64,000 nucleotides of DNA from Candidatus Aenigmatarchaeota archaeon (GTDB lineage Archaea; Aenigmatarchaeota; Aenigmatarchaeia; GW2011-AR5), in assembly GCA_016193585.1 (NCBI GenBank), contig JACPRW010000006.1:293-64292 (forward strand), given 5' to 3'. A program made the position numbers and the translations under genes. Positions within the stretch are counted from its first letter, which is position 1, and every line of letters starts with the position of its first letter. Shown here one piece after another: positions 14,649 to 53,816 of the stretch. The notes under the pieces are model-generated. The model searched no databases. It was not told where the DNA came from and saw only the letters and a list, made by a program, of their open reading frames with translations.

Positions 14649-14689
14649 ATGTAGATATTCACGGGCGTACTATAAATTATTTGTGCATC

Positions 14690-14790
14690 TATAGTCGATG
14701 ACATTAGTTTTCGTACAGTCCCTAATGTCATCTCCTCATAGCAAGGACAGAACTTTTTCTGAATAGTTCTGTCACTTGCTATATTGATGC
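14690..14790. repeat. Palindromic MITE, family R3 (tagcaagtgacagaac..gttctgtccttgcta + aggagatgacat..atgtcatcgacta)
   Basis: Copies at 18822-18925, 20091-20195, 37862-37960, 53379-53425, partials 29745-29800, 53020-53060. Confidence 0.75.
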
Positions 14791-18486: not shown

Positions 18487-18834
18487 TCAGTCAGGCTCGC
18501 ACGCCGTGCCATTCCAGCATTTGCCCTCACCGCAATCACAGCCGTAAGAGAGAGCTAGTGTGCAGTGTACTATTTTTTTTGATCTGACAATCCAGCACTC
18601 GTCATGACAGCCACTTCTAAATTCTTTCCACTGTGCGCCACCTGCTGCGCAGACATCCTCGCTTTGCCGCGGGTAGTCAGGCGGGCTTTGTTGAGTTTGA
18701 GGAGATGCAGTATACATGTAAACGCCGATTGCAACAAGAATCAGTGCAAGAAGAATCAGCGTATACTTCTGCGCATGCAATCGTTCTGTTTTTCTCATCA
18801 CATGAATGTATAATTCTTTCATTATATATAGCAA
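18487..18834 (-). CDS. Small secreted/membrane-anchored cysteine-rich protein
   Basis: N-terminal hydrophobic helix, 10 Cys in C-terminal 60 aa. Confidence 0.4.
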   Translation of the reverse strand: MLYIMKELYIHVMRKTERLHAQKYTLILLALILVAIGVYMYTASPQTQQSPPDYPRQSEDVCAAGGAQWKEFRSGCHDECWIVRSKKIVHCTLALSYGCDCGEGKCWNGTACEPD

Positions 18835-18925
18835 GTGACAGAACTATTCAGACAAAGTTCTGTCCTTGCTATAAGGAGATGACATTAGAAACTGTACAAA
18901 AACTAATGTCATCGACTATAAATCT
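18822..18925. repeat. Palindromic MITE, family R3
   Basis: See 14690-14790. Confidence 0.75.
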
Positions 18926-19068
18926 ATTTCGCAGCAATCAAAGTAAAACCCGCATTTCGCACACTGACCGAAGCCGAGAAACCGCTGTTCAGGGATTTCA
19001 GTCGCGCACCTAGGGCATTTCATACGCATCACCGATGCTATGCATCTATTTATTATTATCATCCAGTA

Positions 19069-19987: not shown

Positions 19988-19995
19988 CGAGGTAT

Positions 19996-20195
19996 GGAGA
20001 AATGCACAGCATATGTCCTCAGAGGCTGCGCATTTCTCATCTAGCGAATTGCGTTTTCACAGGTCATAAGCAACGCAATTCTCTATACTATAGCAAGTGA
20101 CAGAACTATTTATACAAAATTCTGTCCTTGCTATAAGGAGATGACATCAGTAATATGTCTGAAAACGTATGTCAGCGACTATGTAACCCTTTCAC
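19996..20195. repeat. Two adjacent MITEs: family R5 (TGGAGAAATGC..GCAATTCTCTA) followed by family R3
   Basis: R5 copy also nested at 53186-53286; both flanked by TA. Confidence 0.75.
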
Positions 20196-22904: not shown

Positions 22905-25900
22905 ATGTATTCTCAGATGCGCATGAGCAAAAGCCTGTTTGAAGTAGTTGTCATACTTGTATTCGTATTCTTCGTTCTTTTCCATTATCAGCTTTCTCCG
23001 ACGGCAAACGTTACTGCAGCAGCTTCTGCACGGAGCAAGCTCGGCCTCCACACCAGTTTCCAGAACGGTGATGCGTGGAGAACCATACAGGAAGCAAAGC
23101 CGGCTGTTGTCAAGCTTTTTGGCGAATACAGGCAAGCAGCTGAAATCAAACAGGTCTCGCCATGCACGTTTATTGTGGCAAGAACAACACAACCTCAGAA
23201 TAGCCAGCGCTATGATGGAGCCCCCGAAGACAGGGCCCAGGATTGGTTCAATACCTATAAGGATACCATACAAGCTTATCCACGTATTGATTGCTGGGAA
23301 GGGTACAACGAGCCGCCTGCCCAGAATGCCGACCAGATGCGGTGGATAGGGCTTTTTGAAAAGAAGCGCGTCGAGTTGCTTGCAACGATCAACGCCAAGG
23401 CGTGCATAGGTTCATTTCCTGTCGGCAATCCGTCGATACCTGACACATGGCGCGAATTCTATCCGGCGTTTCAGGCAGCGAAGGAGAAGGGCGGTTTCCT
23501 CGCCCTCCACGAATACGGTCCGCCGAGCAACATGCAATGCTATTTCAGCGGCGACGGGCCATGGCTCAATGGTAGATACCGGAAGGTATACAATCAGTAC
23601 CTCATCCCCGATGGCCTCGTCATACCGCTCGTCATGACTGAAGCAGGGATAGACGGCGGCTTATGCGACCAGCGTGGCTGCGAATGTAACCTATGTCGTG
23701 GTGATGCAGAGAATAAATGCGGCTGGAGAGCGTACGGAATAAGCACTGAGCGGTATATGAACGACCTCAGATGGTACGATTCTGTCATCAAGGAGGACAG
23801 CTACGTCATCGGCGCCACCATATATCAAACCGGCATTCCGGGGTGGAGGAGCTTTGAAACATCTCCTGAACTGACGCAGCCGCTCATCACCTACATCAAC
23901 CAGGTCCCTGCGCCGACGCCGCCGAATTGTCCTGTTACTAGTGCTCCGCCTCCCCCACCGCCTGTACAGAAAGGCACAGTCGCAGGCACGGTCACCGACG
24001 AGAACACGGGCTTTGGCATAGGGGAAGCAACGATACGCATCGTTAGTACTGGCATAACAGGTCGACCTATGTCCCCTGACGGCGAGTACACCATTCCCGA
24101 TGTCCCTGCCGGCACCTATACGGTCACTGCGTCTGCTTCAGGGTATCTGTCGCAGTCAAAGGACCTCCAGGAAGTGAGAAACGGGGAAACGACAACGGTT
24201 AACTTCGAGCTGATCCCCGTCCCTCCGCTTGAGGCGTGCTCGCCGAACTGTTACATTGGCGATGAAGCAGGTTATGATAAACTCTGTGCTGGCGGCACGC
24301 AGAATATCTGCGGCGGCACCAAGAACTACGGCGACGTCGTGAGCTGCAGCGAAGGCGCTGCTGAATTCGATGCTCTCTGCAGGCTCAACAGGGACGACCC
24401 GTTCATCACGTATCACACATGGTCTGAGTGCAACACTGATGCTCCGGAGAAAGGCGGGCCGAACGGCGACATTGCTGACGCAGGAACGGTGTGCGAGGCC
24501 AACGGTCGCTGCGGCGCTGGCGTGCAGGGTTCATACCTCTGCGCCCAGTTCAACGGAGCAGAGGATACGTGGGTTGCCTGCGGCACTGATGTCGCAAGCG
24601 GCGGCGATATTGTTGTTGGTTCAACAACATATAATTGCTGCAGCGGTGTCTGGCAGACAACGACATGCGGCGTAACGCCTCCTCCACCGCCTCCGCCGCC
24701 GACGCCGGTAAACAAATGCACCGCCTGCGGGAGGCCGTGCCTGCGGCTCGACAGGACTATCGGCCAGTGCACGGCTGCGCTCCAGTGCATCGGCGTGCAG
24801 TCATACGTTGACGGCAAGCGGTGCTGCGCTGACGAGGACTGTTCTCTGGGGCAACAATGCACCAACGGCGCGTGCGGCGCTGCGGTGAGTCCGGGATGCG
24901 CCAATCTCGCGGCGCGCTTCCAGCGCGACCTCAACGGCAACGGCCAGCCCGACGGCAGCGACGGGCCATGGGAGCAGAGCCTGCAGGCATCGTCCGGCGA
25001 TTCCATCAACGTCGGCCTCATCGACACGAACACCATGGGCTACCCGTCGGCAACGCTCCGCGCCAGCGGCCCTAGCTTCAGCCAAACATTCAGCAGCAAT
25101 CCTGCCAATTTCAGGCCACAGACAACAGGCACCTACACGCTCTCTGCGCAGTCAGGGTCGTGCACTGCGCAGGCGACGCTGACGGTGACAGGAACGAGCA
25201 CTGCGTGCGCTGACAGCACATCGCTCAGTGCGTGTTCGGCGACCAAGCCGAAGTACTGTGATGCTTCTGGAACACTCCAAGAAAACTACTGCTTCGGCCC
25301 TGACCGGGTCGCGGGCAACGCTGATGACTGCGGGTGCTCATCAGGGGCGTGTCAGGCAGACGGCAGGTGTGGCACAGCGCTCCCTCCGCCACCTGTTGCC
25401 GATGGCGGTCTCATCCGCGCCATACAGGACGAGTTCGGCGTCACCATGCAGGGCACCTGGAGTCCTTACCCGCAGCACCTGCGCTGGATCTATGAAAAGT
25501 TCTGGGAACTGAAGCAGACCAACCCAACGTTCATGCAGATGCTGCGCGGCAGGCCGATCTGGTGGGCAACCTGCTGCCCGAACCAACTGAGCGGCTACGT
25601 GCAGATGCCGACAACCGGCAGCTATGCGTACCGCGATGCCTTCATCACGACGCTGCTCCATGAACTGGGCCATGATATTTACTTCAATCGCCGCGATGCA
25701 GGGGCACTGACAGCGCGGTACGACGCGCACTTCGACGCGAACGGCAGGCAGGTCTTCACGAGCTACGCGAATTATTATGCAGCCGATTTCAACCGCCGGA
25801 CAGAGAATTACGCCGAGGTGATTGCGTACTGCCTCACCGGCGATGCAGTGGCATACCATTCCCGTGTGCAGCCGCAGTGGATCGACACAACAAAATGGCA

Positions 25901-28829
25901 GACCTATGAAGATCTCGCCAAGGAAATAACAGGCGGCTTGTGCAAGACGAGCGTGCCGCCGGATCCTGTATGCTCTGACGGCACGGCACTCGGCGCCTGC
26001 TCCTCGCAGAAGCCCCTCCACTGCATGTACCGGGGCGACCTCGTCGAGGACTGCGAACCATGCGGCTGCGCGGCAGGAAGGTGCGATACAACGAGTGGCA
26101 GGTGCATATCGTCATTCACCATTTCAGGCACGGTGAGCGACGTAAGCGGCAACCCGCTGCCGGATGCAGTACTTACGCTTACAGAAAATAGATTCTACGT
26201 CATTGCCAGATCTCGAACAGACGGTTCTGGCAGGTTTTCTATTCCTGATGTACCGCAAAGCACTTATGAATTGTTCTCTCGAAAAGAATGCTTTGAAAGC
26301 GCTTCTGAAACGATCGATCTGGCAGCCGACTACACCAAAAATTTCAGGCTGAACGATGCAGTGCTCGGCAGGGTTGAAATCAACCCTGCTTCTTCACAGA
26401 TCGAGGCTAATCAAAAAATGCAGTTTTCTGGCGCTGCATTTGATGCGAATAACAGGGGCATGCCTGCCCGCTTCAGCTGGAGCTCGGACAATACGAACAT
26501 CGGGACCGTGACCAGCACGGGCGAATTCGAAGGCAGAAACGAAGGCAGCACTACTGTCCGCGTCAGCGCCACGTGCGGCGCGACAACGCGGAGCGCTTCT
26601 GCGACGGTGACCGTACTGCCATCAGGGAGCATCGTGCTCAAACGATGCAGCGAAGCTGATGCGAGCACACCGACGAAAGTAGACTACGTGCTCATTCCGG
26701 AGCAGTCATACACCAGCATCGACGAATTCAAGCGGGATGTAGAAACAAACTATGTGCCAAAGCTCTTTTCGATATCCCCAATTGACGCGAACAAGCAGAA
26801 GTTCAACATATATTATTACGAAGAGAAGGCAGTATGCGACCGCGACGGCCCGAAGGGCACAAAACTCTGCACGCTGCCTTCAAATCTCGGCCATGACTGC
26901 CCGTTCGCAGACATAAAAGCTGTCATCCATAAAGGCACCTGGAGAGACTACGCGATGAGAGACCGTACCTTCACCGCCAACAGCCCCATAACGCAGGTGC
27001 ACGAGATCGGCCATGCGCTCTTTGATTTAGCCGATGAATACTGCTGCGATGGCGGCTACGAAATGCGCGAGCCATACCCGAACATATTCGTCGAGCAGAA
27101 CAGCTGCCAGCAGCAGCTCGACGACAACGGGATAGCGAAACGGTGCAAGCGGCTATGCAAGGACGAGGACCAGGGAGCGTCATGCATCCTCGGCTGCGAC
27201 TGCATTAACTGGTACCGCCAGGAAGGGAAAAGCATCATGAACAACCAGTTCATCTACGAACAGTTCAGCGAAAACAACCTGCTCAGGGTAAACGACGTGT
27301 TTGGGGTATATAGCTCTGGTTCTCAGACAACTCCACAACAAACTTCGCTCGCGAGCTGTATGGCAATTACCAGTCCGGGAACCTATGTGATCGGAGCAGA
27401 CCTGCGCTCAGGCGATACGTGCATGACAATCCAATCATCCGATGTTACGCTTGATTGCGCAGGCAAAAAACTCGAGGGCACGGGCTATAGAGGAAGCGGT
27501 ATCCGCATAGAGGGAAGCGGAACTATACGGAACGTAGAAGTAAAGAATTGCATCGTGAAAGGATATGAAACAGGCATTATCGCACTCAATGGAGAGACTA
27601 TACGGATAAAAGACAATGATGTATCTGATAATTACGATGATACGAAAGGCTGGACAATGAGCAAGTGCACTGAAGACTTAGCACGGATCGGTATCGCAGG
27701 CGAAACGGAACGGAATAGGAAATGTGACATCTGCTTCAAGGCAGGGCGGTGTGGTGTGTTTCTCGGCGACCCCGAAGGCACTGGCATCCACCTCAAGAAT
27801 ACGAAATCGAGTGTTATAGAAAACACTATAGCCCATAATACAGGAATTGGCATCTGGCTTGAAAGCAGCGACAGTAATCAGGTTAAAAATAACGACGTCT
27901 CGTACTCAACTGCATTCGGCATCTACCTACTGGGAGCCAGTAACAGCGTCGTCGAAAACAATATTGCAAATGACGTTACCCGTAACTGCGCGTACTGGTG
28001 CTCTGAAACCGGATGCATCAAAGGGTGCGATGCCACGGGCATCATACTCGAGTCGCGGTTTAGGGACAATGAAAATAACATTATCAGAAAGAATACAGTA
28101 CTGAGGGGAGGCGACGGCATTTTCCTGAAACCAGGCGGGACATTCTGCAGCAACAACAATGAGATCGCAGAAAATGATGTTTCAGGGGCGTTCACCAACT
28201 GCATCGAAGTGACCTTTTGCAACGGCAACAGAATCAAGAGCAACAAAGCCCACAACTGCCCTATCGGATTGTGGCTCGGGTACGCGACCAACACCCTGGT
28301 CGAGGGTAATGAATTCATAAGCAATGCAAATGATGCCATCAATGCTGAAAACAGCAAAGGCAATACCATAAAGCGTAACGTGATTAGGCGCGGCGGGAGG
28401 GGCATCTATCTCTGGAAAAATCCTGTCACTGACCCGATTATCGAAGGAAGGAAAGTAGCAAACCCGCAGCTCAGAGAGCCATTCCCATCTTCCAATCACA
28501 TCATAGAAAGGAATACAATAGAAAATGAGCGGGGGATAGAGTTCACCGATACCGACACAACAGAAATCAGGTACAATACCATTAAAACTAAGGAAAACAT
28601 CATGCTCACGAGGGGTTCAAGCGGGGTGAAGATTTTCAGCAACAACCTGCTCTGCGAAAACTGCCTGTTTTCAGTCAAAAATGACCAGGACATTACCGTG
28701 AATGCGCAATACGATTGGTGGGGCACCGCGGATACGGCCCAGATAGAGCGCATGGTGTACCACAAGACCGATAATACTGCCGTGGGAGAAGTATACTATA
28801 CGCCGACTTTGAGTGGCACCTATGTGTGA
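22905..28829 (+). CDS. Giant (1974 aa) secreted multidomain surface protein: GH-A-like TIM barrel, Pro-rich linkers, Cys-rich modules, CarboxypepD_reg-like domains, two HExxH zincin-like domains, Ig-like (Big_2) domain, C-terminal parallel beta-helix repeats
   Basis: N-terminal TM/signal; WEGYNEP + MTEAGID (GH-A acid/base and nucleophile-like); PPPPPP(V) and TPPPPPPPPTP linkers; LLHELGHD (25659-25673) and VHEIGHALFDLADEY (26999-27013); >15 PbH1-like repeats res about 1500-1960. Confidence 0.85.
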   Translation: MYSQMRMSKSLFEVVVILVFVFFVLFHYQLSPTANVTAAASARSKLGLHTSFQNGDAWRTIQEAKPAVVKLFGEYRQAAEIKQVSPCTFIVARTTQPQNSQRYDGAPEDRAQDWFNTYKDTIQAYPRIDCWEGYNEPPAQNADQMRWIGLFEKKRVELLATINAKACIGSFPVGNPSIPDTWREFYPAFQAAKEKGGFLALHEYGPPSNMQCYFSGDGPWLNGRYRKVYNQYLIPDGLVIPLVMTEAGIDGGLCDQRGCECNLCRGDAENKCGWRAYGISTERYMNDLRWYDSVIKEDSYVIGATIYQTGIPGWRSFETSPELTQPLITYINQVPAPTPPNCPVTSAPPPPPPVQKGTVAGTVTDENTGFGIGEATIRIVSTGITGRPMSPDGEYTIPDVPAGTYTVTASASGYLSQSKDLQEVRNGETTTVNFELIPVPPLEACSPNCYIGDEAGYDKLCAGGTQNICGGTKNYGDVVSCSEGAAEFDALCRLNRDDPFITYHTWSECNTDAPEKGGPNGDIADAGTVCEANGRCGAGVQGSYLCAQFNGAEDTWVACGTDVASGGDIVVGSTTYNCCSGVWQTTTCGVTPPPPPPPPTPVNKCTACGRPCLRLDRTIGQCTAALQCIGVQSYVDGKRCCADEDCSLGQQCTNGACGAAVSPGCANLAARFQRDLNGNGQPDGSDGPWEQSLQASSGDSINVGLIDTNTMGYPSATLRASGPSFSQTFSSNPANFRPQTTGTYTLSAQSGSCTAQATLTVTGTSTACADSTSLSACSATKPKYCDASGTLQENYCFGPDRVAGNADDCGCSSGACQADGRCGTALPPPPVADGGLIRAIQDEFGVTMQGTWSPYPQHLRWIYEKFWELKQTNPTFMQMLRGRPIWWATCCPNQLSGYVQMPTTGSYAYRDAFITTLLHELGHDIYFNRRDAGALTARYDAHFDANGRQVFTSYANYYAADFNRRTENYAEVIAYCLTGDAVAYHSRVQPQWIDTTKWQTYEDLAKEITGGLCKTSVPPDPVCSDGTALGACSSQKPLHCMYRGDLVEDCEPCGCAAGRCDTTSGRCISSFTISGTVSDVSGNPLPDAVLTLTENRFYVIARSRTDGSGRFSIPDVPQSTYELFSRKECFESASETIDLAADYTKNFRLNDAVLGRVEINPASSQIEANQKMQFSGAAFDANNRGMPARFSWSSDNTNIGTVTSTGEFEGRNEGSTTVRVSATCGATTRSASATVTVLPSGSIVLKRCSEADASTPTKVDYVLIPEQSYTSIDEFKRDVETNYVPKLFSISPIDANKQKFNIYYYEEKAVCDRDGPKGTKLCTLPSNLGHDCPFADIKAVIHKGTWRDYAMRDRTFTANSPITQVHEIGHALFDLADEYCCDGGYEMREPYPNIFVEQNSCQQQLDDNGIAKRCKRLCKDEDQGASCILGCDCINWYRQEGKSIMNNQFIYEQFSENNLLRVNDVFGVYSSGSQTTPQQTSLASCMAITSPGTYVIGADLRSGDTCMTIQSSDVTLDCAGKKLEGTGYRGSGIRIEGSGTIRNVEVKNCIVKGYETGIIALNGETIRIKDNDVSDNYDDTKGWTMSKCTEDLARIGIAGETERNRKCDICFKAGRCGVFLGDPEGTGIHLKNTKSSVIENTIAHNTGIGIWLESSDSNQVKNNDVSYSTAFGIYLLGASNSVVENNIANDVTRNCAYWCSETGCIKGCDATGIILESRFRDNENNIIRKNTVLRGGDGIFLKPGGTFCSNNNEIAENDVSGAFTNCIEVTFCNGNRIKSNKAHNCPIGLWLGYATNTLVEGNEFISNANDAINAENSKGNTIKRNVIRRGGRGIYLWKNPVTDPIIEGRKVANPQLREPFPSSNHIIERNTIENERGIEFTDTDTTEIRYNTIKTKENIMLTRGSSGVKIFSNNLLCENCLFSVKNDQDITVNAQYDWWGTADTAQIERMVYHKTDNTAVGEVYYTPTLSGTYV

Positions 28830-31385: not shown

Positions 31386-31519
31386 TTTACCACCTCATAT
31401 TTATTACTTATTAATAGTAAATATTAGTATATAAAGTTATCTGTGCACTCCGCATACTTTCCCGTAGGCAACGAAATTGCATCTCCTTGCCTTGGTATTA
31501 AAAATATCGCTCTTCCCCT

Positions 31520-31800
31520 TTATAGCTGACCAACTTAATATTCAGGTATTACACAAGTTGGTCACCTATAGTGAACCAAGTTATAGATAATTGCGCAGCT
31601 TATGTCGTATTAACGCGCAATTTTCTATAGGTGAATTGCAAATAATATCAGGACATATAGTGAACCAAGTAAATAATCAGGTATTGTATCTTGGTTCACT
31701 TATAGCGGACAACAAAAGTAATATGTCGGTATTCTTTTGTTGGTCCACTATAACCAGTGCAATTCACCATATAATATCCGGATTCTTTACTTGGTTAACT
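31520..31800. repeat. Nested mosaic of palindromic MITEs (families R6, H3 aattgcgc..gcgcaatt, H4 ggtgaattgca..tgcaattcacc); a 113-bp R6 element (31638-31750) is inserted inside the H4 loop
   Basis: Uninterrupted H4 copies at 49711-49754 and 55401-55444 give the empty site ggacaTAaccag; TA duplicated at 31636-37 and 31751-52. Confidence 0.8.
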
Positions 31801-32578
31801 ATAACTGACTGATACAAAAACATGCTCCGTTAGAAAGAAATTCAAATATTTTGTTGCATCGCTGTTTCTGTTGTTGTATTTGTTTTCGTATAAAGAAACG
31901 TACAAATGCAGGTTCTTTTTGCACACGCCTTTGAACATCTCAAGAAAATGTCTCAATCCCTGAAACGCTCCTTCTATGGTGTTCGTATGAACGTCTCCAC
32001 GCACGTATTCTTTTAGCGAGTGATTGGCAGTGGCGTGTCTGTATCCTTTTTTCTTCAGCGAATTGTAATAGTAAAGAACATTGATTTTGGAACATTTTAT
32101 GATGTTCTTTCCCTATAGCAGATTGCAGCTAAAAGTTCCATTATTATTACAATCTGCTATAAGCTGTGAAATCGTCTGTGTACACAGACGATTTTTTGTC
32201 AATTCTTTTCGGCACTTTGTTAACGCTTCTCTTTCGCATGTTTGGCAAAACCCGCAATGTAATCTTTCCTTTTCTCTCCACGCTGCCAACAATCGGCGGC
32301 TTGTCTTTGTCGTATGTCCCGCGTCCGCGCAATTTCAGGCCGCGTTTTCTAGGCGGCCTTTTGAGCGTTTTGGAGCCTTTTTCGCCTGCTGCGATGTACA
32401 TCTCGTCGATTTCCACTTTTCCGGAAAGCGTTTCCAAGAAACGCTTTTCATAAACGTTGTTCATGATTTTCTTCGCTATTGTGTGGATGTTCTTGTACTC
32501 CCTGCCAAGCTCCTGGGTTATCTTGTTTATGGAAATTCCGCGTTTCAATTCCTTTGCAATGTAAACCCATTCCCGCAA
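31795..32578 (-). pseudogene. IS1595-family (ISXO2-like) transposase gene interrupted by a 92-bp MITE
   Basis: N-part ...VEIDEMYIAAGEKG...VYTDDFTAY | insertion | NSLKKKGYRHATANHSLKEYVRGDVHTNTIEGAFQ... C-part; removing 32068-32159 plus one TA restores an uninterrupted YTDDFTAYNSLKKKGY frame across the junction. Confidence 0.75.
32068..32159. mobile_element. MITE (family R1) inserted into IS1595-family transposase ORF with TA target-site duplication
   Basis: TA at 32066-67 and 32160-61; element termini ATAG...GCTA; deletion restores reading frame. Confidence 0.8.
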
Positions 32579-32791
32579 AGGAATTTTTGAGGCATCAAAA
32601 ATAGTTCCGGTCCTTTCTGTAAAAGATTTTCCGCAACTTCTATTACCCGTTAGCCTACGCGAGGATGACGCAAGGCGAACGAAACGTCCGCTGGCGTAGG
32701 AGAACCTCCGGTTCTCCTCACGTAGGCGACTTTTTCAACAAAGCCAATCGTGCAAGAATCTTTATATACTTTATATTAATATCATATTAAG

Positions 32792-33037
32792 GTGATGTAT
32801 ATGCCGCAGGCTATCGTGCGGATATCCGACAAGGCGAACAGGGTGCTGAATATTGTCAAAGCAAAATATGGATTACGCGATAAGTCCGAAGCCATAAACG
32901 TGGTGATAGAGGAATACGAAGCGGAGGTGATGGAACCGGAGCTTCGCCCTGAATACATCGAGAAGCTGGAGAAGATACGAAAAGAGAAGCCCATTAGGAT
33001 AGGAACGGCAAAAGACCTTAGAAAAAGGTACAAATGA
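32792..33037 (+). CDS. Ribbon-helix-helix (CopG-like) antitoxin
   Basis: IVRISDKANRVLNIVKAKYGLRDKSEAINVVIEEY beta-alpha-alpha pattern; 4-nt overlap with downstream toxin. Confidence 0.6.
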   Translation: MMYMPQAIVRISDKANRVLNIVKAKYGLRDKSEAINVVIEEYEAEVMEPELRPEYIEKLEKIRKEKPIRIGTAKDLRKRYK

Positions 33038-33303
33038 TGTACACGCTCTATATACGACCTTCACTGGATGAAAAATTAAGCAAACTTGCGGGAAGGAGTA
33101 GAAAGCAGTTTACGATAATCATGAAAAAGACGGAAGAAATACTACAGAGGCCGCATCATTACAAAAACTTGCATGCACCGTTGCAGCACCTGAAAAGAGT
33201 CCATATTGACAAGAGTTTTGTTCTGACATTTTCTATCGATGAAAAACGAAAGACGATAATCTTAGAAGATTACGACCACCACGACAAAATCTACAGAGGA
33301 TAG
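33034..33303 (+). CDS. RelE/ParE-family toxin
   Basis: ...LHAPLQHLKRVHIDKSFVLTFSIDEKRKTIILEDYDHHDKIY typical ParE/RelE C-terminal pattern. Confidence 0.65.
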   Translation: MMYTLYIRPSLDEKLSKLAGRSRKQFTIIMKKTEEILQRPHHYKNLHAPLQHLKRVHIDKSFVLTFSIDEKRKTIILEDYDHHDKIYRG

Positions 33304-33305
33304 CT

Positions 33306-33671
33306 ATGCAGCAAATCCTTCTCGACACCAACGTCCTGCTCCTGCCGGTGCAGCGCAAGGTTGACATTTTCGACGAGCTCAGGGATGCTGAGCTGCTCGT
33401 CTTGGCGAGCAGCATCAGGGAACTGGAGCAGCTGTCCAAGGGAAAAGGCAGGCCAGGAGCGCAGGCAAAAGCCACGCTGCAGCTGCTCCGCAGCAGGAAT
33501 ATCAGCATCCTACCGACAAAACTGCGGGGCGACAGCGCGATAATGCAGTATGCGCGCGCCAACCCGTCGGTGACCGTGGCGACCAACGACAAACAACTTA
33601 TTAAAGCATTGCAGGCGAAAGGGATTACCATCCTGCGCCTGAGGCAGAAGAAATACTTTATCGAGGAGTGA
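33306..33671 (+). CDS. PIN-domain protein (Fcf1/COG1412-like housekeeping PIN; VapC-like alternative)
   Basis: ILLDTNVLL ... VATNDKQLIKALQAKGITILRLRQKKY; starts 3 nt after ParE-like gene. Confidence 0.6.
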   Translation: MQQILLDTNVLLLPVQRKVDIFDELRDAELLVLASSIRELEQLSKGKGRPGAQAKATLQLLRSRNISILPTKLRGDSAIMQYARANPSVTVATNDKQLIKALQAKGITILRLRQKKYFIEE

Positions 33672-37861: not shown

Positions 37862-37960
37862 AACAGATATAGCAGGTGACAGAACTATTCAGACAACGTT
37901 CTGTCCTTGCTGCAAGGAGATGACATTAGGAACTGTATGAAAACTAATGCCATCGACTAG
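37862..37960. repeat. Palindromic MITE, family R3
   Basis: See 14690-14790. Confidence 0.75.
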
Positions 37961-40400: not shown

Positions 40401-40412
40401 ATGCTTATCTTA

Positions 40413-40598
40413 ATAGTATGTTCTGTTGATTAGTGAACATTTCATGCAGAACATACCGTATAGCAGGTTCAGGTGAAAAGTTTGGTTATTACGTGAACCT
40501 GCTATAATAGCAGATTGTAATAATAATGGAACTTTTAGCCGCAATCTGTATATGGAAAGAACATTGTAAAATGTTCCAAAATCAATGTTCTTTACTAT
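40413..40598. repeat. Two adjacent MITEs: family R2 then family R1 (inverted)
   Basis: See 405-535 and 10570-10672. Confidence 0.8.
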
Positions 40599-40750
40599 AA
40601 GATGAACATTGAAAACACGTGACTTTAGCCGTGTGATGAAACTCAATGTATGGTGGAACAACGTTCCACCTGCATAGGTGGAATTCTCAATTCCGCCATA
40701 TGTTCATCTGGATCCCATCTTCTCACAAACTACCGGCTTCAGCCGGTGAT

Positions 40751-43623: not shown

Positions 43624-45273
43624 CTATTCGTGGGCAAACGCGGCAGTGATGCTGCCTGCTCCCTTCTTTTCTATCCTTACGAAGCCGAACCTCTCGAACT
43701 GGACGATAGCTCCTACCTTTTCCTTGAGGAGGTTCGTTTCGCCATACCCCTTTATCTCCTTGCCTGGCTTGAAGATGCGGACCTGGATGTGCTTTGCAGG
43801 GACCCACTGGATTTTCGGTATCGCCTTCAGCTCCCTGCTGGTGAATTCGCACTTCTCGCCAAGCTTGATGTTGCACAGGTCCTTGAGCCGTATCTCGAGG
43901 CTCTTGTACCGCTCAAAATCCTTGAGGTCGATGTAAAACGTGCTGGTGATGGAAAATTTCCGCGCGTTGCCCTTCTTATCAGGATGAAGCCCGACCGACA
44001 CGCTCTTCATCTTCATGCCGCCAACTATGATTTTTTTTGGGTTTGGGATGAAGAAGTAACGGTGCGCAAGCTTGTCGATAATTTTCCTGTTGTACGCCGC
44101 CAGATTCTCGAGCGAAATGGTTATGTCGTTGGGCTTCGGCCCTATCTCGGTTACAATGGTCCTGATTGCTTCGGGCTGGAAGCCGCGCCTGCGCAGCGCG
44201 CGCAGCGTTCCCAGCCGGAGGTCGGTCCATCCGTTGTACTCGTGATTCAAGATGCCTTCGCGGATGGTACTCTTGCTCAGCACCATGTCGGAAAGCGAAA
44301 ACCTGCCGAGGGTGATGACGAACGGATATGACCACCTGAAATGCTGGTACAGGAACCGCTGCTTCACCTCATTAGTCGAGTGTTCCTGACCCCTAAATAT
44401 ATGCGTGACCTTGGCAAGATAATCGTCTATCGCCGAGGCAAAGTTGTACAGCGGCCACACCTTCTTCCTTTTCTCGAGGGGATGCCGGGGGACATCGACA
44501 ATCCTGAACGCCGCCCAGTCGCGGACCGCGGGATTTTTTGCGTCGAGGTCTGTCTTGATGCGCAGCACCGCCTCCCCTTCCCTGAACTTGTGGGCAAGCA
44601 TCCGCTTCCATTTCTTGAGCTGCGCTTTCGGCTCAAGGTTCCTGCACGGGCATGCTTTTCCCTGGTCGCGGAGCGCCTTCCACGCATCGCCGCAGGTGCA
44701 CACGTACGCGCCATTGAGCTGCATGAGCTTTTCTGCATGCTTGTAGTACAGGGGCAGGCGCTTCGAAGCAATCATCTCGACTGTCCACTTGATGCCGAGC
44801 CATCTGAGGTCCTCCCGTATCCACTCATAAAACTGCTTCTCAGGCACCTTCACTTTGGGGTCGGTGTCGTCAAACCTGAGAATGAACGAGCCATTGTATT
44901 TCTTGGCGTATTCGTATGACAGGACGGCAGGCCGCGCGTTGCCCAAGTGCAACGCCCCGTCAGGATTGGGCGCAAAGCGCACGACGAACTTTTCCCTCGT
45001 AAGGTCGAGCTCGGGCAGACCTTTTCTCTCCTCCTGCTTTGCCCTCGCCGGCAGCTCGCCCAGCTCAGCCCGCTGCTTCTGGATGCCGAGGCGATTCACA
45101 TCGTCGACAACCAGCTCAACCGCAGACCGAATTTCAAGGACACGAGAACGCAAATCGGGGTGCTCCGCAAGAACCTTGCCGAGCACGCTCTTTGGCTGCG
45201 CGGTGCCGTCATGCTCAACGGCGTTTATAAGCGCGTAGCGGCGTATAACCCCGTCGACATCCATAACAATCAT
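43624..45273 (-). CDS. gltX: Glutamyl-tRNA synthetase (archaeal/eukaryotic type)
   Basis: HIGH-class motif (ALHLGNARPAV), VLSKS (KMSKS-like), 549 aa. Confidence 0.85.
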   Translation of the reverse strand: MIVMDVDGVIRRYALINAVEHDGTAQPKSVLGKVLAEHPDLRSRVLEIRSAVELVVDDVNRLGIQKQRAELGELPARAKQEERKGLPELDLTREKFVVRFAPNPDGALHLGNARPAVLSYEYAKKYNGSFILRFDDTDPKVKVPEKQFYEWIREDLRWLGIKWTVEMIASKRLPLYYKHAEKLMQLNGAYVCTCGDAWKALRDQGKACPCRNLEPKAQLKKWKRMLAHKFREGEAVLRIKTDLDAKNPAVRDWAAFRIVDVPRHPLEKRKKVWPLYNFASAIDDYLAKVTHIFRGQEHSTNEVKQRFLYQHFRWSYPFVITLGRFSLSDMVLSKSTIREGILNHEYNGWTDLRLGTLRALRRRGFQPEAIRTIVTEIGPKPNDITISLENLAAYNRKIIDKLAHRYFFIPNPKKIIVGGMKMKSVSVGLHPDKKGNARKFSITSTFYIDLKDFERYKSLEIRLKDLCNIKLGEKCEFTSRELKAIPKIQWVPAKHIQVRIFKPGKEIKGYGETNLLKEKVGAIVQFERFGFVRIEKKGAGSITAAFAHE

Positions 45274-45300
45274 ATGCCGTGTGCATCTTTAAGAAACGAG

Positions 45301-46074
45301 TCACAGTCTTTTCTTTTTCGCATGCCGGTAATAGAAAACCGTCTTTGTTATCGCGGCGAGCGCCGAGGTGAACAACGCGGCTACGAGGCTCAGGAGGTAG
45401 CCCACCTGTGGTATCGCCTCGAAGGCAGCAGCCACCACCATGATGATGACGACCACGAGGGCAATCACGCCGAGCGCTTGCCAGAACGCATGGCGCGCTA
45501 TACCGAAGCTACGCCGCAGCGCCTGTATGCCACCCTGCCGCTCGATGACCACCACGGGCTCGAGTTGCCAGGAACCGAGCACGGCAACGAATACGAGCGC
45601 GACGATACCTATGACGGCGGTGATGACGCCCAACGGGCCTGCGAGCATGAGCAGGACGAGCGGTACGCATGCCACCAGAACAAGGGTGATCAACAGGAAA
45701 TAAGCCCAGAGAAGGGACAGAAACCGTTCCCTGGCGGTGCCGAACGCAGCGGAAAGCATGACCGGCTTCCGTCTTATTGCCTGCTGCACGAGCGGAGGGT
45801 AAGCTGCATTGATGAACGTGTTCACCAGAACGGCGAACACCATGAGCGCTGCGAATGCTGCAAGGTACGGCATGACTGCATTGAGCGTTGCCTGCATATT
45901 GGACAAAGCTTCCGTGAAGCTCCTCATGGTGAAATGCTTTGCGAACGCTGCCATGCCAGAAGCAAACAGCAGGCTGAAGAGGGCTGTCGGAATCCAGGCG
46001 AGCACCTGCGGCAGCACCACTTTTGGATAGCGCCTGATTATTCTGGCCGCATATTCCATGACCTCGAGAACCAT
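45301..46074 (-). CDS. Polytopic membrane protein, hypothetical
   Basis: 257 aa, 6+ hydrophobic helices. Confidence 0.45.
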   Translation of the reverse strand: MVLEVMEYAARIIRRYPKVVLPQVLAWIPTALFSLLFASGMAAFAKHFTMRSFTEALSNMQATLNAVMPYLAAFAALMVFAVLVNTFINAAYPPLVQQAIRRKPVMLSAAFGTARERFLSLLWAYFLLITLVLVACVPLVLLMLAGPLGVITAVIGIVALVFVAVLGSWQLEPVVVIERQGGIQALRRSFGIARHAFWQALGVIALVVVIIMVVAAAFEAIPQVGYLLSLVAALFTSALAAITKTVFYYRHAKKKRL

Positions 46075-46108
46075 AGGTATATATGCTTCATAGCGTTAAT
46101 AAATCCGT

Positions 46109-46498
46109 ATGAGAGAATCCACTGTAGTGCACCTGCTTGCCGGCGTCGGGCTGGTGTCATTCGCCGTCATCGCGTATGCGACCGCGGTGTCGACGCCGCT
46201 CGTGACCGAGGCATTCGGCGGATTTCTTGTAGAAGCGACCTGTTTCGACACCGACGAGCTGCTCGACACGTCATCGAAAAGCTGCAGGGATGCGCTTGAA
46301 ATGAAAGACATCATGGAGACGGACGTGTGCGGCCGCTACGCCGCCGAGCAGCACGGTGCCTGCCATACCGTACAGGAAGCGGCCAATAAAAAGATAGCGT
46401 ACTGCTCGGACATCACTAATGTCCTGCAGGACAGGGAGCTGTACATAGATATCGGCGAGGTCGACGCGCAGTGCGCTGTCCTTCTCGGCGAAGCATAG
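46109..46498 (+). CDS. Secreted/anchored Cys-containing hypothetical protein
   Basis: N-terminal hydrophobic helix; 6 Cys. Confidence 0.35.
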   Translation: MRESTVVHLLAGVGLVSFAVIAYATAVSTPLVTEAFGGFLVEATCFDTDELLDTSSKSCRDALEMKDIMETDVCGRYAAEQHGACHTVQEAANKKIAYCSDITNVLQDRELYIDIGEVDAQCAVLLGEA

Positions 46499-46499
46499 A

Positions 46500-46600
46500 T
46501 AACTGCGTAGTTTATGTGACGTATTATTAGCAGTTATCTATATGCAAACTGCGTTGTATCATGTAACCTAAGTAACGCAGTTTACTATATGATATGCTCC
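46500..46600. repeat. Double-hairpin palindromic unit (tagataactgc..gcagttatcta; caaactgcgtt..aacgcagtttac) with TATA flanks; single copy in window
   Basis: Direct reading. Confidence 0.6.
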
Positions 46601-46648
46601 TCTATAAAAGATATTTAAACTACATTTGACAAGTACTACTGATACCCC

Positions 46649-47230
46649 ATGGCATTAAGCAAAGGAAAAGTGCCGATGAGCTTCGTTGAAAAGATAAAGG
46701 AAGTGCTCCTCTCGCCTACTGCTTTCTTCACCGCCATCAAGCGCGAGCAAGGCATCAAAGAAGCGCTTGTCTATGTTTCCATCCTGTCGCTCGTCTCCAT
46801 CATTCTCAACTACGCAATCAACCCGAAGGTCTTCAGCGAACTGGCGGCACTCGGGCTACCATCCTCAATCGGCATCGGCATCATCGCCCTCATCTGGGTG
46901 CTCGGCATACTCCTCAACTTCCTTGTGGTAGGGTTCTTCCACATCTTCGTGATGCTGCTCGGCGGCAAGGAAGGCTACGGCGCGACGTACCGGGCGTTTG
47001 CCTACGCGGCAACACCCACGAATCTTTTTGGCTGGATCCCGCTCATCGGCATCCTTTTCAGTCTCTGGTCGCTGTACCTCAACGTGAAAGGGCTTTCCAT
47101 TCTTCAGCACATGAGTACCGGCAGGGCGCTGGCGGCAATCGTCATCCCGATTGCCATCATCCTGATACTCATCTTCACATTTGCCTTCGCAATTTTAGCT
47201 GCAATCCTCTACGGCGCTGCCCGGCAATGA
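46649..47230 (+). CDS. Yip1-domain membrane protein
   Basis: 5 TM helices in Yip1-like arrangement. Confidence 0.5.
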   Translation: MALSKGKVPMSFVEKIKEVLLSPTAFFTAIKREQGIKEALVYVSILSLVSIILNYAINPKVFSELAALGLPSSIGIGIIALIWVLGILLNFLVVGFFHIFVMLLGGKEGYGATYRAFAYAATPTNLFGWIPLIGILFSLWSLYLNVKGLSILQHMSTGRALAAIVIPIAIILILIFTFAFAILAAILYGAARQ

Positions 47231-47255
47231 GCGTTTAAGCACTGCGGCTCTATTT

Positions 47256-47864
47256 TTGACTATGAAATTCTTTTACGGTGACATCATTCTCGACATCCCT
47301 CTGTCAGTGTACTGCCCTGAAGAGGATTCGCTTCTTCTGGCAAAGGTGCTCGAACAGGAAACGCTCGAAGGGAAAACAGCACTAGACATGGGCTGCGGCT
47401 CCGGTTTCCTTGCCGTGCTCATGGCGCAGAAGGGCGCTGACGTCACTGCCTGCGACAGCGACGAAGCGTCTGTGGCAGCGACGAAGCGCAACGCGGCGAC
47501 GAACAACACCAGCATAAAGGCAGTCCTGTCAGACTTGTTTTCTCATATCGACGGAACATTCGACCTCATCGCCTTCAATCCGCCGTACCTTCCAGAAGGC
47601 GAGGATGAACATGTGGTGAAGGATGCGGTGCTGCTCCGGCAGTGGCAGGGCGGGGAACAGGGAAGAACCAGTATCGAATTGTTCATTGCCCAGGCGAAGC
47701 AGCACCTTAACGAGGGTGGCAGGATACTCATGCTCATTTCGTCGGCAACAGGGGAGCAGGAAGTAGGTGACCTGTTCAAAGCGGATGGATTTACCGCAAC
47801 AATTGCAGCGCGGCAGAAGATTCCATGGGAGGAGCTCATGGTTATTGAGGCGCATAATCCTTGA
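47256..47864 (+). CDS. HemK/Mtq2-like N5-glutamine methyltransferase (class I SAM MTase)
   Basis: LDMGCGSGFLAV (motif I), FNPPY (NPPY motif). Confidence 0.7.
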   Translation: MTMKFFYGDIILDIPLSVYCPEEDSLLLAKVLEQETLEGKTALDMGCGSGFLAVLMAQKGADVTACDSDEASVAATKRNAATNNTSIKAVLSDLFSHIDGTFDLIAFNPPYLPEGEDEHVVKDAVLLRQWQGGEQGRTSIELFIAQAKQHLNEGGRILMLISSATGEQEVGDLFKADGFTATIAARQKIPWEELMVIEAHNP

Positions 47865-48264
47865 ACCGGCGCGCGACATACCTGGCGTTGTCCATGTCTT
47901 TCTGGTAGAATTCAGCCCCTGTTGCGCCAAGGAAAGCGTCAAGCGACATGCCATGCTCCCGCTTCAGGTACTCATCTGCCCCCTCCCGGTCGTTTGACGA
48001 GAGCACCACAATCGCTCCCCTGTAGCCGCGCCTTCTGGCTTCCTCGACAAACTCCTTGCCGTCCATGACTGGCATGTCGAGGTCTGACGCCACAACCGCG
48101 TACGTGCCGTCCAGCTGTTCCAGCCCGTCGGGAGCGTGCGTATATATGACAACCTCGTAGCCCTCGCGATCAAATCCTAAGCCGACCAGTTCTGCAAGGC
48201 CGGGGTTGTCGTCAACGATGAGCACTCTCTGTTTATTGCCGGGATGCATGTTTCTTACTCTCAC
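47842..48264 (-). CDS. Response-regulator receiver domain protein (CheY-like)
   Basis: RVLIVDDNPGLAEL ... DLDMPVMDG phospho-acceptor Asp. Confidence 0.8.
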   Translation of the reverse strand: MRVRNMHPGNKQRVLIVDDNPGLAELVGLGFDREGYEVVIYTHAPDGLEQLDGTYAVVASDLDMPVMDGKEFVEEARRRGYRGAIVVLSSNDREGADEYLKREHGMSLDAFLGATGAEFYQKDMDNARYVARRFKDYAPQ

Positions 48265-48308
48265 CGGAAACTATAAAACTTTTAACTTCTCGAAACCGTT
48301 ATCTATGC

Positions 48309-49100
48309 ATGCCTGTCAATGCGCCAGCGGAATATTTCAAGGCCGAGGAGCGGTTCAAAGCGGCAAAATCAAAGGAAGAGCGCATCGTCGCGCTGGAAGA
48401 AATGATACGGCTTCTGCCGCGCCACCACGGCAGCGAGCAGATGATAGCGCAGCTCAAATCGCGGCTCGCAAAGCTCAGGCGGGAATCAGAATCGAAACGC
48501 GGGCCGAAAAAGACCGGCATCGCGAAGGAAGGCGACGCGCAGGTCTGCCTGATCGGCTTCACGCAGTCAGGCAAATCGACGCTGCTTGCCAGCTTGACCG
48601 GCGCCAAGCCGCGCATCTCGCCGCATCCGTACACCACCACAACGCCGGAAATCGGCATGATGGACTATATGGGCGTCAAGGTGCAGCTCGTTGAAATACC
48701 ATCCTCGTTCAGGCACGAACATCTGAGCATCGCGCGCACCGCGGACCTCGTCGTGCTCGTCGGCGACAAGGAGAGGGAACTGAAGCAGCTGATCGAGGAC
48801 AACTTCGTCCGCACCAGGAGCATTGCCGCGAACCCGCGCGAGCACCTTCCCGGCGACATAAAGGAGCGGATATGGAAGTCGCTCGGGCTCATTGTTGTAT
48901 ACACGAAGATGAAATCGAAGGCGGTCTCTCCCATGGCGCTCAGGAAAGGGTCGACGGTCAGGGATTTTGCGCTGCGCATTCACAAGGACTTCGTCGCGAA
49001 CTTCCGCTTCGCGAGGCTCTGGCGCCACACGGCAATCAAGCAGGTCGGGCTGAACTACACGCTCGAGCACGGCGACATCGTGGAGCTCCATGCGAAATGA
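48309..49100 (+). CDS. DRG/Obg-like GTP-binding protein with C-terminal TGS domain (short, possibly degenerate G domain)
   Basis: GFTQSGKSTLL P-loop; C-terminal TGS-like VVYTKMK...YTLEHGDIVEL; G3/G4 motifs weak. Confidence 0.55.
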   Translation: MPVNAPAEYFKAEERFKAAKSKEERIVALEEMIRLLPRHHGSEQMIAQLKSRLAKLRRESESKRGPKKTGIAKEGDAQVCLIGFTQSGKSTLLASLTGAKPRISPHPYTTTTPEIGMMDYMGVKVQLVEIPSSFRHEHLSIARTADLVVLVGDKERELKQLIEDNFVRTRSIAANPREHLPGDIKERIWKSLGLIVVYTKMKSKAVSPMALRKGSTVRDFALRIHKDFVANFRFARLWRHTAIKQVGLNYTLEHGDIVELHAK

Positions 49101-49229
49101 GATGCCCTAGGTACAGGTGAAATGGAGCTTCGCATAGCATCGGTGGGCATCTCAAGTGAAAAGTACAACCCGGAAGTTGCAGTATCATACTTTTCACAAT
49201 GATTTAAGCAGGGCACGCGAACATATCGT

Positions 49230-49586
49230 ATGTCATTCCATGAGGCACTCGGCCAGTCGGGCATCCTCGTCATCATCCTTTTCATCCTCTTCGTGATTGC
49301 CATCAAGAAATCGTATGAGATACTGAAGAACGTAATCCTCATCGCGGGCGCTGCCATCCTGTTCCCCCTTGTCATGAACAACATGCTCGGCTTCTCGCTC
49401 AGTACGAGCGCAGACGCGGTGGTGATGTACATAACCGCCGGCGTCGGCTTGTACCTGCTCTACCTCTTCGCCAAGTCAATCTACACGTTCCTCGGCATCG
49501 TTGAGAAGTCGGCGAAAGCTGCTGCCTCTCCGGTACGCAAAGTTATCAAGAAAAAAAGCGCGGCGCAGGACAATGATGCAGACTAA
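49230..49586 (+). CDS. Small membrane protein, hypothetical
   Basis: 3 hydrophobic helices. Confidence 0.4.
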   Translation: MSFHEALGQSGILVIILFILFVIAIKKSYEILKNVILIAGAAILFPLVMNNMLGFSLSTSADAVVMYITAGVGLYLLYLFAKSIYTFLGIVEKSAKAAASPVRKVIKKKSAAQDNDAD

Positions 49587-49588
49587 TA

Positions 49589-49790
49589 GTAAAGAACATT
49601 GATTTTGGAACATTTTACAATGTTCTTTCCCTATAGCAGATTGTGGTTAAAAGTTCCATTATTATTACAATCTGCTATAGATAATTGCGCAGCTTATGTC
49701 GTATTAACGCGCAATTTTCTATAGGTGAATCGCAAATAATATCAGAACATAACCAGTGCAATTCACCATATAATGTCAAACAAGAAATAA
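49589..49790. repeat. MITE family R1 followed by H3/H4 hairpin units
   Basis: See 10570-10672; intact H4 at 49711-49754. Confidence 0.8.
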
Positions 49791-49820
49791 AAATAATCGG
49801 TATCATTTATTTGATTCACA

Positions 49821-50444
49821 TTAGCCCGTTGCCGACAGTTCCAGCCTGATGTCGGGGACGCTGAGGGATGCCGCTGCACCGGTTATCATTATCCCATCGG
49901 CAATCTCGACAGTGCCGAGGACGTCCTGCAGCACGACAAGCTTGTCTGCGAGCCTCAGCTCAGCTCCGCGGGCGGACAGCACCGCATTGCCGGCAACAGA
50001 GAGCTCCGCTATCGTGACGTTATCCATGACGAGCGTCCCGAATGACCCGGAGCCGCTGATGGAACCTTCTGCGAACATCGCTCCGGCAACCTCAATTTTC
50101 TTGTACGTTCCCTGCAGTTCGAGCGTCTTCCCGGAGAGCGTCCCTGCGCCCCTGAAACCCTGTACCGCTATGCTGCCGTTTGTTTCAATCCTGCCGCCTT
50201 TCACGTCAGCCGTGAATGCCTGCGGCTGCAGGATGAGACGTGCATTCGTGCCGCTGAACGTTACATTGCCGTAGCTGTCGGCTGCGAGTTCAAAAGAAAC
50301 GTTGCGGGCTGGCTGTATATCAGGAAGACTGAAGGACACCTTCTCGCCGAGAGCGTTAGCGAATTCAGCAAAAGGCCCCAGCGAGAACCCTGCCGCAAGA
50401 ACAATGCCCATGATGAGAACCGTTGCCACGATTTTCCAGTCCAT
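49821..50444 (-). CDS. Secreted beta-rich repeat protein (signal-anchored), hypothetical
   Basis: N-terminal TM; Gly/Ser/Thr-rich repetitive beta-strand pattern. Confidence 0.45.
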   Translation of the reverse strand: MDWKIVATVLIMGIVLAAGFSLGPFAEFANALGEKVSFSLPDIQPARNVSFELAADSYGNVTFSGTNARLILQPQAFTADVKGGRIETNGSIAVQGFRGAGTLSGKTLELQGTYKKIEVAGAMFAEGSISGSGSFGTLVMDNVTIAELSVAGNAVLSARGAELRLADKLVVLQDVLGTVEIADGIMITGAAASLSVPDIRLELSATG

Positions 50445-50491
50445 ATACCCCGCCTTTGCTTCGCAAACTCGTCCCTAGTATTGAATGTAAG

Positions 50492-51972: not shown

Positions 51973-52047
51973 ACCGTCTTCAAAACGTCACCGTTCAGAA
52001 ATAACATTTATATAGTTTGTTAATCGAGTAGATACGGAGGAGAAACT

Positions 52048-53810: not shown

Positions 53811-53816
53811 ACATGT

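Follow-up and report, generated by a model that had tools for sequence, protein, structure and literature searches.

A dispersed hairpin element, probably a 91-bp MITE with a TWA target, is inserted in an IS1595 transposase gene of an Aenigmatarchaeota archaeon

Introduction

What separates the two parts of a transposase gene in an uncultured archaeon, and how did it get there? In contig JACPRW010000006.1 of a Candidatus Aenigmatarchaeota archaeon (assembly GCA_016193585.1), a transposase gene of the insertion sequence (IS) family IS1595 is interrupted by a short segment that folds as two hairpins. We analysed the window around it, that is the whole stretch of 64,000 nt from position 293 to 64,292 of the contig, and all coordinates below are given in window numbering. 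A sequence-only reading had taken the segment for a miniature transposable element with inverted repeats (MITE) of a family called R1, here named AB, which was cleanly inserted in the gene with a duplication of TA, and it had claimed that these hairpin elements are or recently were mobile and that the resident IS1595 copy is dead. High densities of MITEs are known in some DPANN genomes from a census (PMC11602168); for DPANN MITEs the literature search gave such census-level reports only, and no description of the AB family was found.

It turned out that a dispersed hairpin repeat, at 32069-32159, has been cleanly inserted in a transposase gene of the IS1595/ISXO2-like kind. We consider it probable that the repeat is a 91-bp non-autonomous MITE of an Aenigmatarchaeota family, which is moved by a trans-acting DDE transposase and duplicates TWA at its target.

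The interrupted transposase gene

On the minus strand the transposase frame reads ...SSVYTDDFTAY, then the insert, and then NSLKKKGYRHATANHSLKEYVRGDVHTNTIEG..., running from 32065 downwards. Homology to intact copies places the upstream part of the transposase remnant (CGKSF...VYTDDFTAY) at 32163-32636 and the downstream part (NSLKKKGY...EHVFVSVS) at 31802-32065, both on the minus strand, with the AB element between them at 32069-32159 on the plus strand, bounded by the termini TAG...CTA. The insert is non-coding and breaks the frame, and the upstream open reading frame (ORF) ends with ...KKSSVYTDDFTAYSRL* at 32147. When 94 nt were removed (32068-32159 with one TA, or 32069-32159 with one TAA), one open frame was restored. 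The reconstructed protein contains the DDE_Tnp_IS1595 catalytic domain that characterises the IS1595 family, and it matches this Pfam profile (E = 4e-23, positions 1-147 of 153) as well as transpos_IS1595 of NCBIfam (E = 2e-41, 1-215 of 215) in a single stretch each.

A search with the transposase found 502 homologues, and the best 120 of the 502, which are the ones listed, are mostly about 300 aa long. The closest intact homologues among the matches listed are P0001, P0003 and P0004 with 90%, 82% and 80% identity, and these three together with seven further homologues are among 11 that align over the reconstructed junction without a gap. P0006 and P0009 have the identical NSL tripeptide at the junction, where P0006 reads VHTDDFKSYNSLKKKGYDH. 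A blastn comparison of the DNA with L009, which is the intact copy closest to the window, gave two blocks with 82% and 87% nucleotide identity, between which 106 nt are unmatched in the window against 12 in L009, which makes 94 extra nt. The insert was found neither in the homologues aligned nor in the DNA of L009 and two further intact relatives, L143 and L144. The empty site is reconstructed as ATTG-TAA-GC, or ATTGTAAGC, and the relative L143 has GTAAGC in single copy. Because intact homologues align across the junction and the comparison with L009 shows 94 extra nt, the clean insertion proposed by the sequence-only reading stands, including its expectation that the reconstructed junction is contiguous with IS1595 transposases.

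The element is placed between the conserved YTDD and HTNTIEG blocks of the transposase, which hold the second and third catalytic residues of the IS1595 family. The truncated upstream ORF of 143 aa corresponds exactly to the database protein P0012, for which NCBI has the name 'IS1595 family transposase [Candidatus Aenigmarchaeota archaeon]', and no database record was found for the C-terminal transposase fragment of 69 aa. The junction between IS and element also occurs in independent Logan short-read assemblies of at least nine runs, which end 25 nt inside the element, and public assemblies of the same population (L001, L139 and L140) end 25-27 nt inside AB copies. Look-ups of neighbouring genes for empty alleles at other AB sites gave only contigs that end inside repeats. 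AB elements fragment short-read assemblies at each copy, and this leads to truncated 'transposase' calls such as P0012.

Ends of the element and target duplication

To which bases the element extends was judged from the flanks of 24 distinct AB sites, among which L122 and L130 are probably one site. The three nucleotides before TAG are TAA in 19 of the 24 sites and those after CTA are TAA in 21, while both flanks are TAA (TAA-TAG...CTA-TAA) in 18. Two independent copies have TTA on both sides in their own orientation, namely L124/L132, which is counted among the 24 sites, and the window copy at 40508-40598, which that scan missed. Four flank pairs are mismatched, with one base difference each. 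A stands directly after TA in 23 of the 24 sites, and a weaker preference for G is seen at +4. TA is contained in every AB flank, yet the third base changes in step on the left and the right, so that TAA is paired with TAA and TTA with TTA. Both flanks switch together to TTA, which is the behaviour expected of a true duplication; its form agrees with the TA/TWA duplication of the PIF/Harbinger-IS5 type and with the target-site duplication of a MITE.

At the IS site, TA plus 92 nt and TAA plus 91 nt are identical bases. The best reading of the flanks is that the AB element is probably a 91-bp TAG...CTA with a 3-bp TWA duplication, and not a 92-bp ATAG...CTA with TA, because the TTA/TTA copies need no extra change under TWA, whereas under TA they would have had to lose the 5' A and acquire a T on the 3' side. 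The left duplication is then TAA at 32066-32068 (minimum TA at 32066-32067), as suggested by the flanks, the reconstructed empty site and L143, and the right one is TAA at 32160-32162, as suggested by the flank statistics. Of the target first proposed, the TA itself is retained in every flank, but the division into 92 bp and TA gives way to 91 bp and TAA (TWA) when the 24 sites are taken together. A right-hand TAA as part of the element was also considered and rejected, as the A after TA is native in verified empty sites.

Enzymes of the IS630/Tc1-mariner type are the classic TA duplicators. A 92-bp ATAG...CTA element with a 2-bp TA duplication, moved by such a transposase in the manner of Stowaway, RUP, MITEEc1, SM1 or Correia-like elements, is weighed here, and we think it unlikely, although it survives better than any other alternative. 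It yields the same 94 nt at the IS site, the verified filled/empty pairs of other hairpin families (see below) allow TA, and the array at the IS end allows at most TA; besides, IS630 elements are reported from archaea (PMC13343696). However, the termini would be unequal by one base, a one-sided preference for A after TA would be needed at 23 of the 24 sites, and L124/L132 and 40508-40598 would become separate variants, both of which TWA explains at once.

Structure of the element

The insert folds as two hairpins (minimum free energy as DNA, -13.6 kcal/mol; z = -3.5). Hairpin A at the left end (32069-32115, plus strand) has the layout TAG-T-AAAGAACAT-loop-ATGTTCTTT-CCCTA, in which AAAGAACAT and ATGTTCTTT are the arms and the loop contains TGGAACATTTTA. 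Hairpin B at the right end (32116-32159, plus strand) has the layout TAGCAGATTG-loop-CAATCTGCTA, and its loop contains TAAAAGTTCCA, which is the loop motif of hairpin A inverted. From each end inwards there are TAG, an arm of about 10 nt (9-12), about 6 AT-rich bases and TGGAAC(A)TTTTA, with GGAAC(A)TTTTA equidistant from both termini. As both termini read in the same order inwards, the two halves are inverted repeats of each other. The alignment of A2 with the reverse complement of B2 has a score of 13, which was reached in 0 of 1000 shuffles; the terminal inverted repeats of a MITE are significant for A2B2 and marginal for A1B1. The element is two internally palindromic terminal inverted repeats of about 45 bp back to back, with no internal DNA. 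Its 91 bp, two hairpins and absence of an ORF agree with the size and non-coding nature of MITEs.

In an alignment of 20 distinct copies the termini TAG/CTA are invariant. In the B stem 90.7% of the cells are paired, compared with 45% or less against a slid partner; from one subfamily to the other, changes in columns 54-85 and 57-82 compensate each other fully (A-T to G-C and G-C to C-G), and a third pair occurs as four pair types. In hairpin A the pairing register of A1 and A2 is shifted by one (for example, 411-457 against 32069-32115), and the arms are swapped, GAACAT...ATGTTC in A1 against ATGTTC...GAACAT in A2, with the sequence and orientation of the loop kept (columns 4-13 and 33-43). 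One may guess that the swap stems from an ancestral palindromic arm such as GTTCGAAC, which is still present in B2. GAAC half-sites are repeated in the arms and loops and are putative protein-binding sites.

Copies of the AB family

Like a typical multicopy MITE, the AB family occurs nine times in the window, and a degenerate B-hairpin pattern gave 8 matches where 0 were expected by chance. With a 96-nt query, the most similar copy is at 10580-10670 on the plus strand (99% over 10577-10672), with 1 mismatch from the IS copy; it is intergenic and lies about 20 nt before the start codon of a glutamate-dehydrogenase-like gene. Copies with lower identity are at 49587-49677 on the plus strand (94.8%; 49584-49679), directly followed by the hairpin units C and H, at 57706-57796 on the minus strand (93.8%; 57704-57799), and at 53181-53364 on the minus strand (about 94%; 53179-53367), where the copy is split by an 88-nt two-hairpin element nested in its B loop. 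At 40414-40598 two AB copies are arranged tail to tail with one common TAA, A2B3 on the plus strand and A1B1 on the minus strand, and the latter (94.6%; 40507-40598) is the copy flanked by TTA/TTA. The pair, whose members belong to different subfamilies, looks (40411-40601) as if one had inserted in the duplicated target of the other. The second subfamily is represented by an A2B2 copy at 411-501 on the plus strand (match 408-504; flanks TCA on the left and TAA on the right) and by the plus-strand member of this pair (40413-40505), while a solo B2 hairpin, a single end, is at 55159-55202 on the plus strand (55157-55204). Five AB copies of the window are in plus and three in minus orientation.

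Both subfamilies are also present in the Aenigmatarchaeota metagenome-assembled genomes (MAGs) JBAZQV01 and JACRMW01, in one 'uncultured archaeon' MAG and in 20 metagenome contigs, each locus having a single copy. When genome contigs were scanned with a 16-base B-hairpin pattern, about 105 of 109 matches were chance matches in bacteria, and the real ones are L050, L086, L103 and L110. The family had 0 matches in the viral contigs scanned and was not found in the NCBI contigs that carry the intact IS relatives L143 and L144.

Other hairpin families and nested insertions

Three more filled/empty pairs, all of other hairpin families and all at TA, were found in the window. The first is the nested 88-nt element in the B loop of the split AB copy (53196-53285 with the duplicated TA, at most TAT), by which the intact CCATTATTATTACAATC has become CCATTATTA, TAGAG...CTCCA and TATTACAATC. 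The second is a 281-nt block at 31521-31801, made of a 279-nt nested TAG...CTA array and the duplicated TA, which lies in the TAA stop codon and right end of the IS. The intact IS end, CAGTCAGTTA joined to AAGGAGAAGAGCGA, is split into 31802-31811 and 31507-31520 with at most TA duplicated, and the ORF ends with ...SVSYS* because the array splits the stop codon. The third is inside this array, where the loop of hairpin H harbours element E-F (31658-31751); an intact H is found at 49718-49770, and ACATAACC has become ACATA, TAG...CTA and TAACC. Hairpin H and unit C in turn lie in the loop of a further hairpin (G). These families have the termini TAG...CTA in common with AB, while their loop motif is different (roughly TCNGGTAT) and they fit TA and not TWA. 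The mobility of hairpin elements is thus demonstrated four times in the window, and together with the near-identical AB copies it bears out the claim that such elements move or recently moved.

The dispersed short repeats, AB and the other hairpin families together, amount to about 3.0 kb (4.7% of the window) in about 22 clusters, and Rfam and tRNA scans of the window gave no match. A relative of the nested 88-nt element is also at about 19993-20090. A two-hairpin family (TAGTCGATGACATTAG... / TAGCAAGGACAGAAC...) is found at 14687-14784, 18823-18926, 20089-20147, 37867-37959, 53009-53052 and 53371-53416, partly as solo half-elements; its flanks are TA-TAG...CTA-TA, with T after the right TA in 3 of 4 full copies. 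A second class of repeats consists of short-loop GC-rich hairpins (such as CCACCGACTGAAGTCGGTGG and GCTGCCTGAAGGCAGC) at 51-256, 8894-9021, 52868-52995 and 55230-55330, of which 8894-9021 and 52868-52995 are mutually inverted copies, and some of these hairpins are embedded within AT-rich TAG...CTA hairpins.

State of the IS1595 copy

The IS1595 copy of the window spans 31507-32636. Since homology to intact copies begins at 32636, which corresponds to position 226 of L009, about 225 nt of the 5' end of the IS are missing, including the left inverted repeat and most of the Zn-ribbon. The right inverted repeat is reduced to its last 14 nt (AAGGGGAAGAGCGA; 31507-31520, minus strand), which lie beyond the array and are identical to the right end of L144. 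For comparison, the intact relatives L009 and L144 are about 986 bp long with inverted repeats of about 25 bp (TCGCTCTTCT...), and L144 has an 8-bp-like duplication (ATCCTTT-like). The window copy therefore does not combine a Zn-ribbon with both inverted repeats as an active copy does, although its gene matches DDE_Tnp_IS1595 and transpos_IS1595 like other ISXO2-like members. With the 5' truncation, the lost left inverted repeat and two MITE insertions, the second one in the stop codon, the copy is dead, as had been proposed, and to a greater extent than was noted then.

L144 (GCA_035290775.1, DATDTP010000074.1; 1640-2700) is an intact IS1595 relative with 82% amino acid identity and both inverted repeats. 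Its neighbourhood is syntenic with the window (PIN_9, Rpb7-like, Spt4, S24e), with the IS at another position and in another orientation, and no hairpin MITEs were found in the 6.9 kb examined of that genome. In the window, a GC-rich inverted repeat at 32637-32745 (CCTACGCGAGGA...TCCTCACGTAGG, with an inner GGAGAACCTCCGGTTCTCC hairpin) begins exactly at the end of the IS1595 homology; it is single in the window, has no Rfam match and is like the short-loop GC hairpins of other repeat clusters. The dead IS is adjoined by toxin-antitoxin-like genes (DUF2683, an 88-aa ORF and PIN_9; 32792-33671). Elsewhere in the window there are a MazE/PemK pair within 43627-61216 (from the Pfam screen, the ORF not being pinpointed) and a beta-helix protein of 1974 aa at 22905-28829.

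Discussion

The AB element was inserted by cut-and-paste or copy-and-paste, with a short T(W)A duplication and by an agent acting on both ends. As for the agent, its class may be IS5/PIF-Harbinger or IS630, and the binding motif may be that of the GAAC half-sites. In the mechanism that we consider probable, a DDE transposase from a gene elsewhere in the genome would bind the subterminal GAAC-containing motifs of both ends, cut at the TAG/CTA termini and join the ends to a staggered target break of 3 nt (TWA), while for the other hairpin families of the genome the stagger would be 2 nt (TA). At the IS, the element entered TAA in the Tyr-Asn codons downstream of YTDD, with duplication of TAA (at least TA), and shifted the frame so that the protein stopped after 3 codons; the IS copy may already have been a wreck at that time or may have become one later. 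The PIF/Harbinger-ISL2EU-Spy (PHIS) superfamily, which is grouped with bacterial IS5, makes duplications of 0, 2 (TA) and 3 bp (PMC12730594). Because both TA and 3-bp duplications occur in this superfamily, a PHIS/IS5 enzyme could serve AB and the TA families alike.

Several points weigh against this mechanism. An exact empty allele of the IS site is absent from the data, in which there are only relatives with 82-90% identity. In the subfamily found in the IS, the alignment of A1 with the reverse complement of B1 is marginal, as 7% of shuffles score as high. The duplication is oriented as TAA in about 90% of the copies, a bias that a symmetric DDE complex does not predict. The other families fit TA, so that one has to suppose either several enzymes or a stagger that is flexible. 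No second transposase was seen among the matches listed for the 66 window ORFs in four Pfam screens (all but about 7 of the weakest families per screen), which are housekeeping families only, and neither in the window nor in 24 related loci was there a long element that has A and B as its ends; when 94 ORFs of such loci were screened with NCBIfam, the best 25 of 433 families were uninformative. Candidate long elements with TAG-type inverted ends 400-3000 nt apart were all pairs of separate MITEs.

A broader reading takes the hairpins as a lineage-specific burst of ends-only transposons from at least two superfamilies, which are recognised by structure and not by sequence, by an enzyme new to MITEs. 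The window families, in which stems drift while the shape of the hairpins and the motifs of their loops persist and which are nested in each other's loops, fit such a picture, and the candidates would be a PHIS/IS5-like transposase of archaea whose stagger is TWA, or else an enzyme that binds hairpins; we regard it as quite doubtful, somewhat more so than the 92-bp element with TA.

Structure also matters for the next alternative, a hairpin-guided transposition of single-stranded DNA by an HUH tyrosine enzyme, as in palindrome-associated transposable elements (PATEs) of IS200/IS605 or in repetitive extragenic palindromes (REPs) with their REP-associated tyrosine transposases (RAYTs). The element would then be inserted 3' of T(W)A and carry the right TAA itself, so that nothing would truly be duplicated. 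Both ends are indeed hairpins with variable stems and a conserved structure, three insertions are in hairpin loops, and the (A/G)TAG foot of AB is similar to the GTAG foot of REPs. Nevertheless, in two independent copies both flanks have become TTA together, whereas a right end that belongs to the element would not follow the left flank in this way, and the ends are mutually inverted repeats, unlike the left and right ends of IS200/IS605. IS608 needs a spacing between guide and cleavage site, for which AB offers no room, as its hairpins reach the termini. Besides, the window copies show no strand bias, and no Y1_Tnp is among the matches listed for the 66 window ORFs. We thus hold this mechanism to be improbable, even though IS200/IS605 is the commonest archaeal IS family (PMC13343696).

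An even smaller chance is given to an IS607-like serine transposase or another recombinase, by which a circular form would be integrated through a TA crossover and leave an apparent TA repeat. TA is found at both junctions, and the several subterminal GAAC half-sites per end are like the multi-site ends of IS607-family elements that Chen et al. reportedly described in 2018 in eLife. The third duplicated base and the TTA/TTA copies would be unexplained, IS607 is described without inverted-repeat ends whereas the AB ends are inverted repeats, and no serine recombinase is among the matches listed for the window ORFs. Finally, that there was no insertion at all, and that instead the assembly is chimeric at the repeat or every other IS1595 copy has lost an ancestral segment, can practically be dismissed: short-read assemblies do break at these repeats and misjoins are conceivable, but the right junction recurs in the independent assemblies of at least nine runs, the two IS halves that flank the insert have the correct order, orientation and frame, the best 120 of 502 homologues are mostly of the normal length of about 300 aa, and the insert is non-coding and frame-breaking.

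The 91-bp element with a TWA duplication can be compared with known systems, and by every feature that can be tested, an identified partner apart, AB is a MITE. It is closest to Tourist-type/PHIS MITEs by target, and to IS630-type MITEs and Correia elements by size and habit. Like the former, it is small, non-coding, AT-rich, multicopy and foldable with a 3-bp TWA (TAA/TTA) duplication, but it differs in that no related transposase was found in the window, and in its lack of internal sequence, its palindromic ends and its DPANN host. GG-type ends are usual for IS5/Harbinger, whereas AB has the termini TAG...CTA. PHIS relatives also occur with TA or no duplication (PMC12730594). With the MITEs of the IS630/Tc1-mariner type (Stowaway, RUP, MITEEc1, Sulfolobus SM1) and with Neisseria Correia elements AB shares insertion at TA, a size class of about 80-150 bp, hairpins and a mostly intergenic location, but its flanks are TAA/TTA and not TA alone. 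Correia elements are likewise not known to have an identified transposase.

PATEs of IS200/IS605, and REPs or bacterial interspersed mosaic elements (BIMEs) with RAYTs, resemble AB in their hairpins of conserved structure, short foot (TAG in AB, GTAG in REPs) and intergenic mosaics or arrays. AB differs from them by flanks that behave as real duplications, by inverted-repeat ends and by the lack of a Y1 transposase among the matches listed for the window; REPs are GC-rich and, unlike AB, are not known as cleanly inserted elements with duplicated targets. The very small repeats that are nested in cyanobacterial genomes (Elhai et al. 2008), the Rickettsia palindromic elements and M1/M2 of pithovirus (PMC10664404) are also tiny palindromic mobile repeats, and like them the hairpin elements of the window nest in one another, form arrays and occasionally insert in genes. 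There is no evident sequence relation, the hosts are other ones, and AB has killed a gene in place of being tolerated in frame.

In conclusion, a transposon landing in a defunct transposon is a common event, but as the intact form of the gene is known, the states before and after can be compared exactly here, which is rare for a repeat family of an uncultured DPANN archaeon. It shows that the genome's hairpin repeats are transposons, as opposed, for instance, to regulatory palindromes formed where they stand. The IS insertion fixes the probable ends of AB and its probable T-W-A target, and AB was active after the IS1595 copy had arrived. It also brings to light a genome in which nested hairpin elements are unusually dense, and a family not described in the literature found. 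If the enzyme is of the IS5/Harbinger type, archaeal MITEs would be linked to a TWA-inserting superfamily known mainly from eukaryotes. Should the broader reading hold, with recognition by structure, AB would rank as the first counterpart in archaea of the TWA elements of Tourist type.

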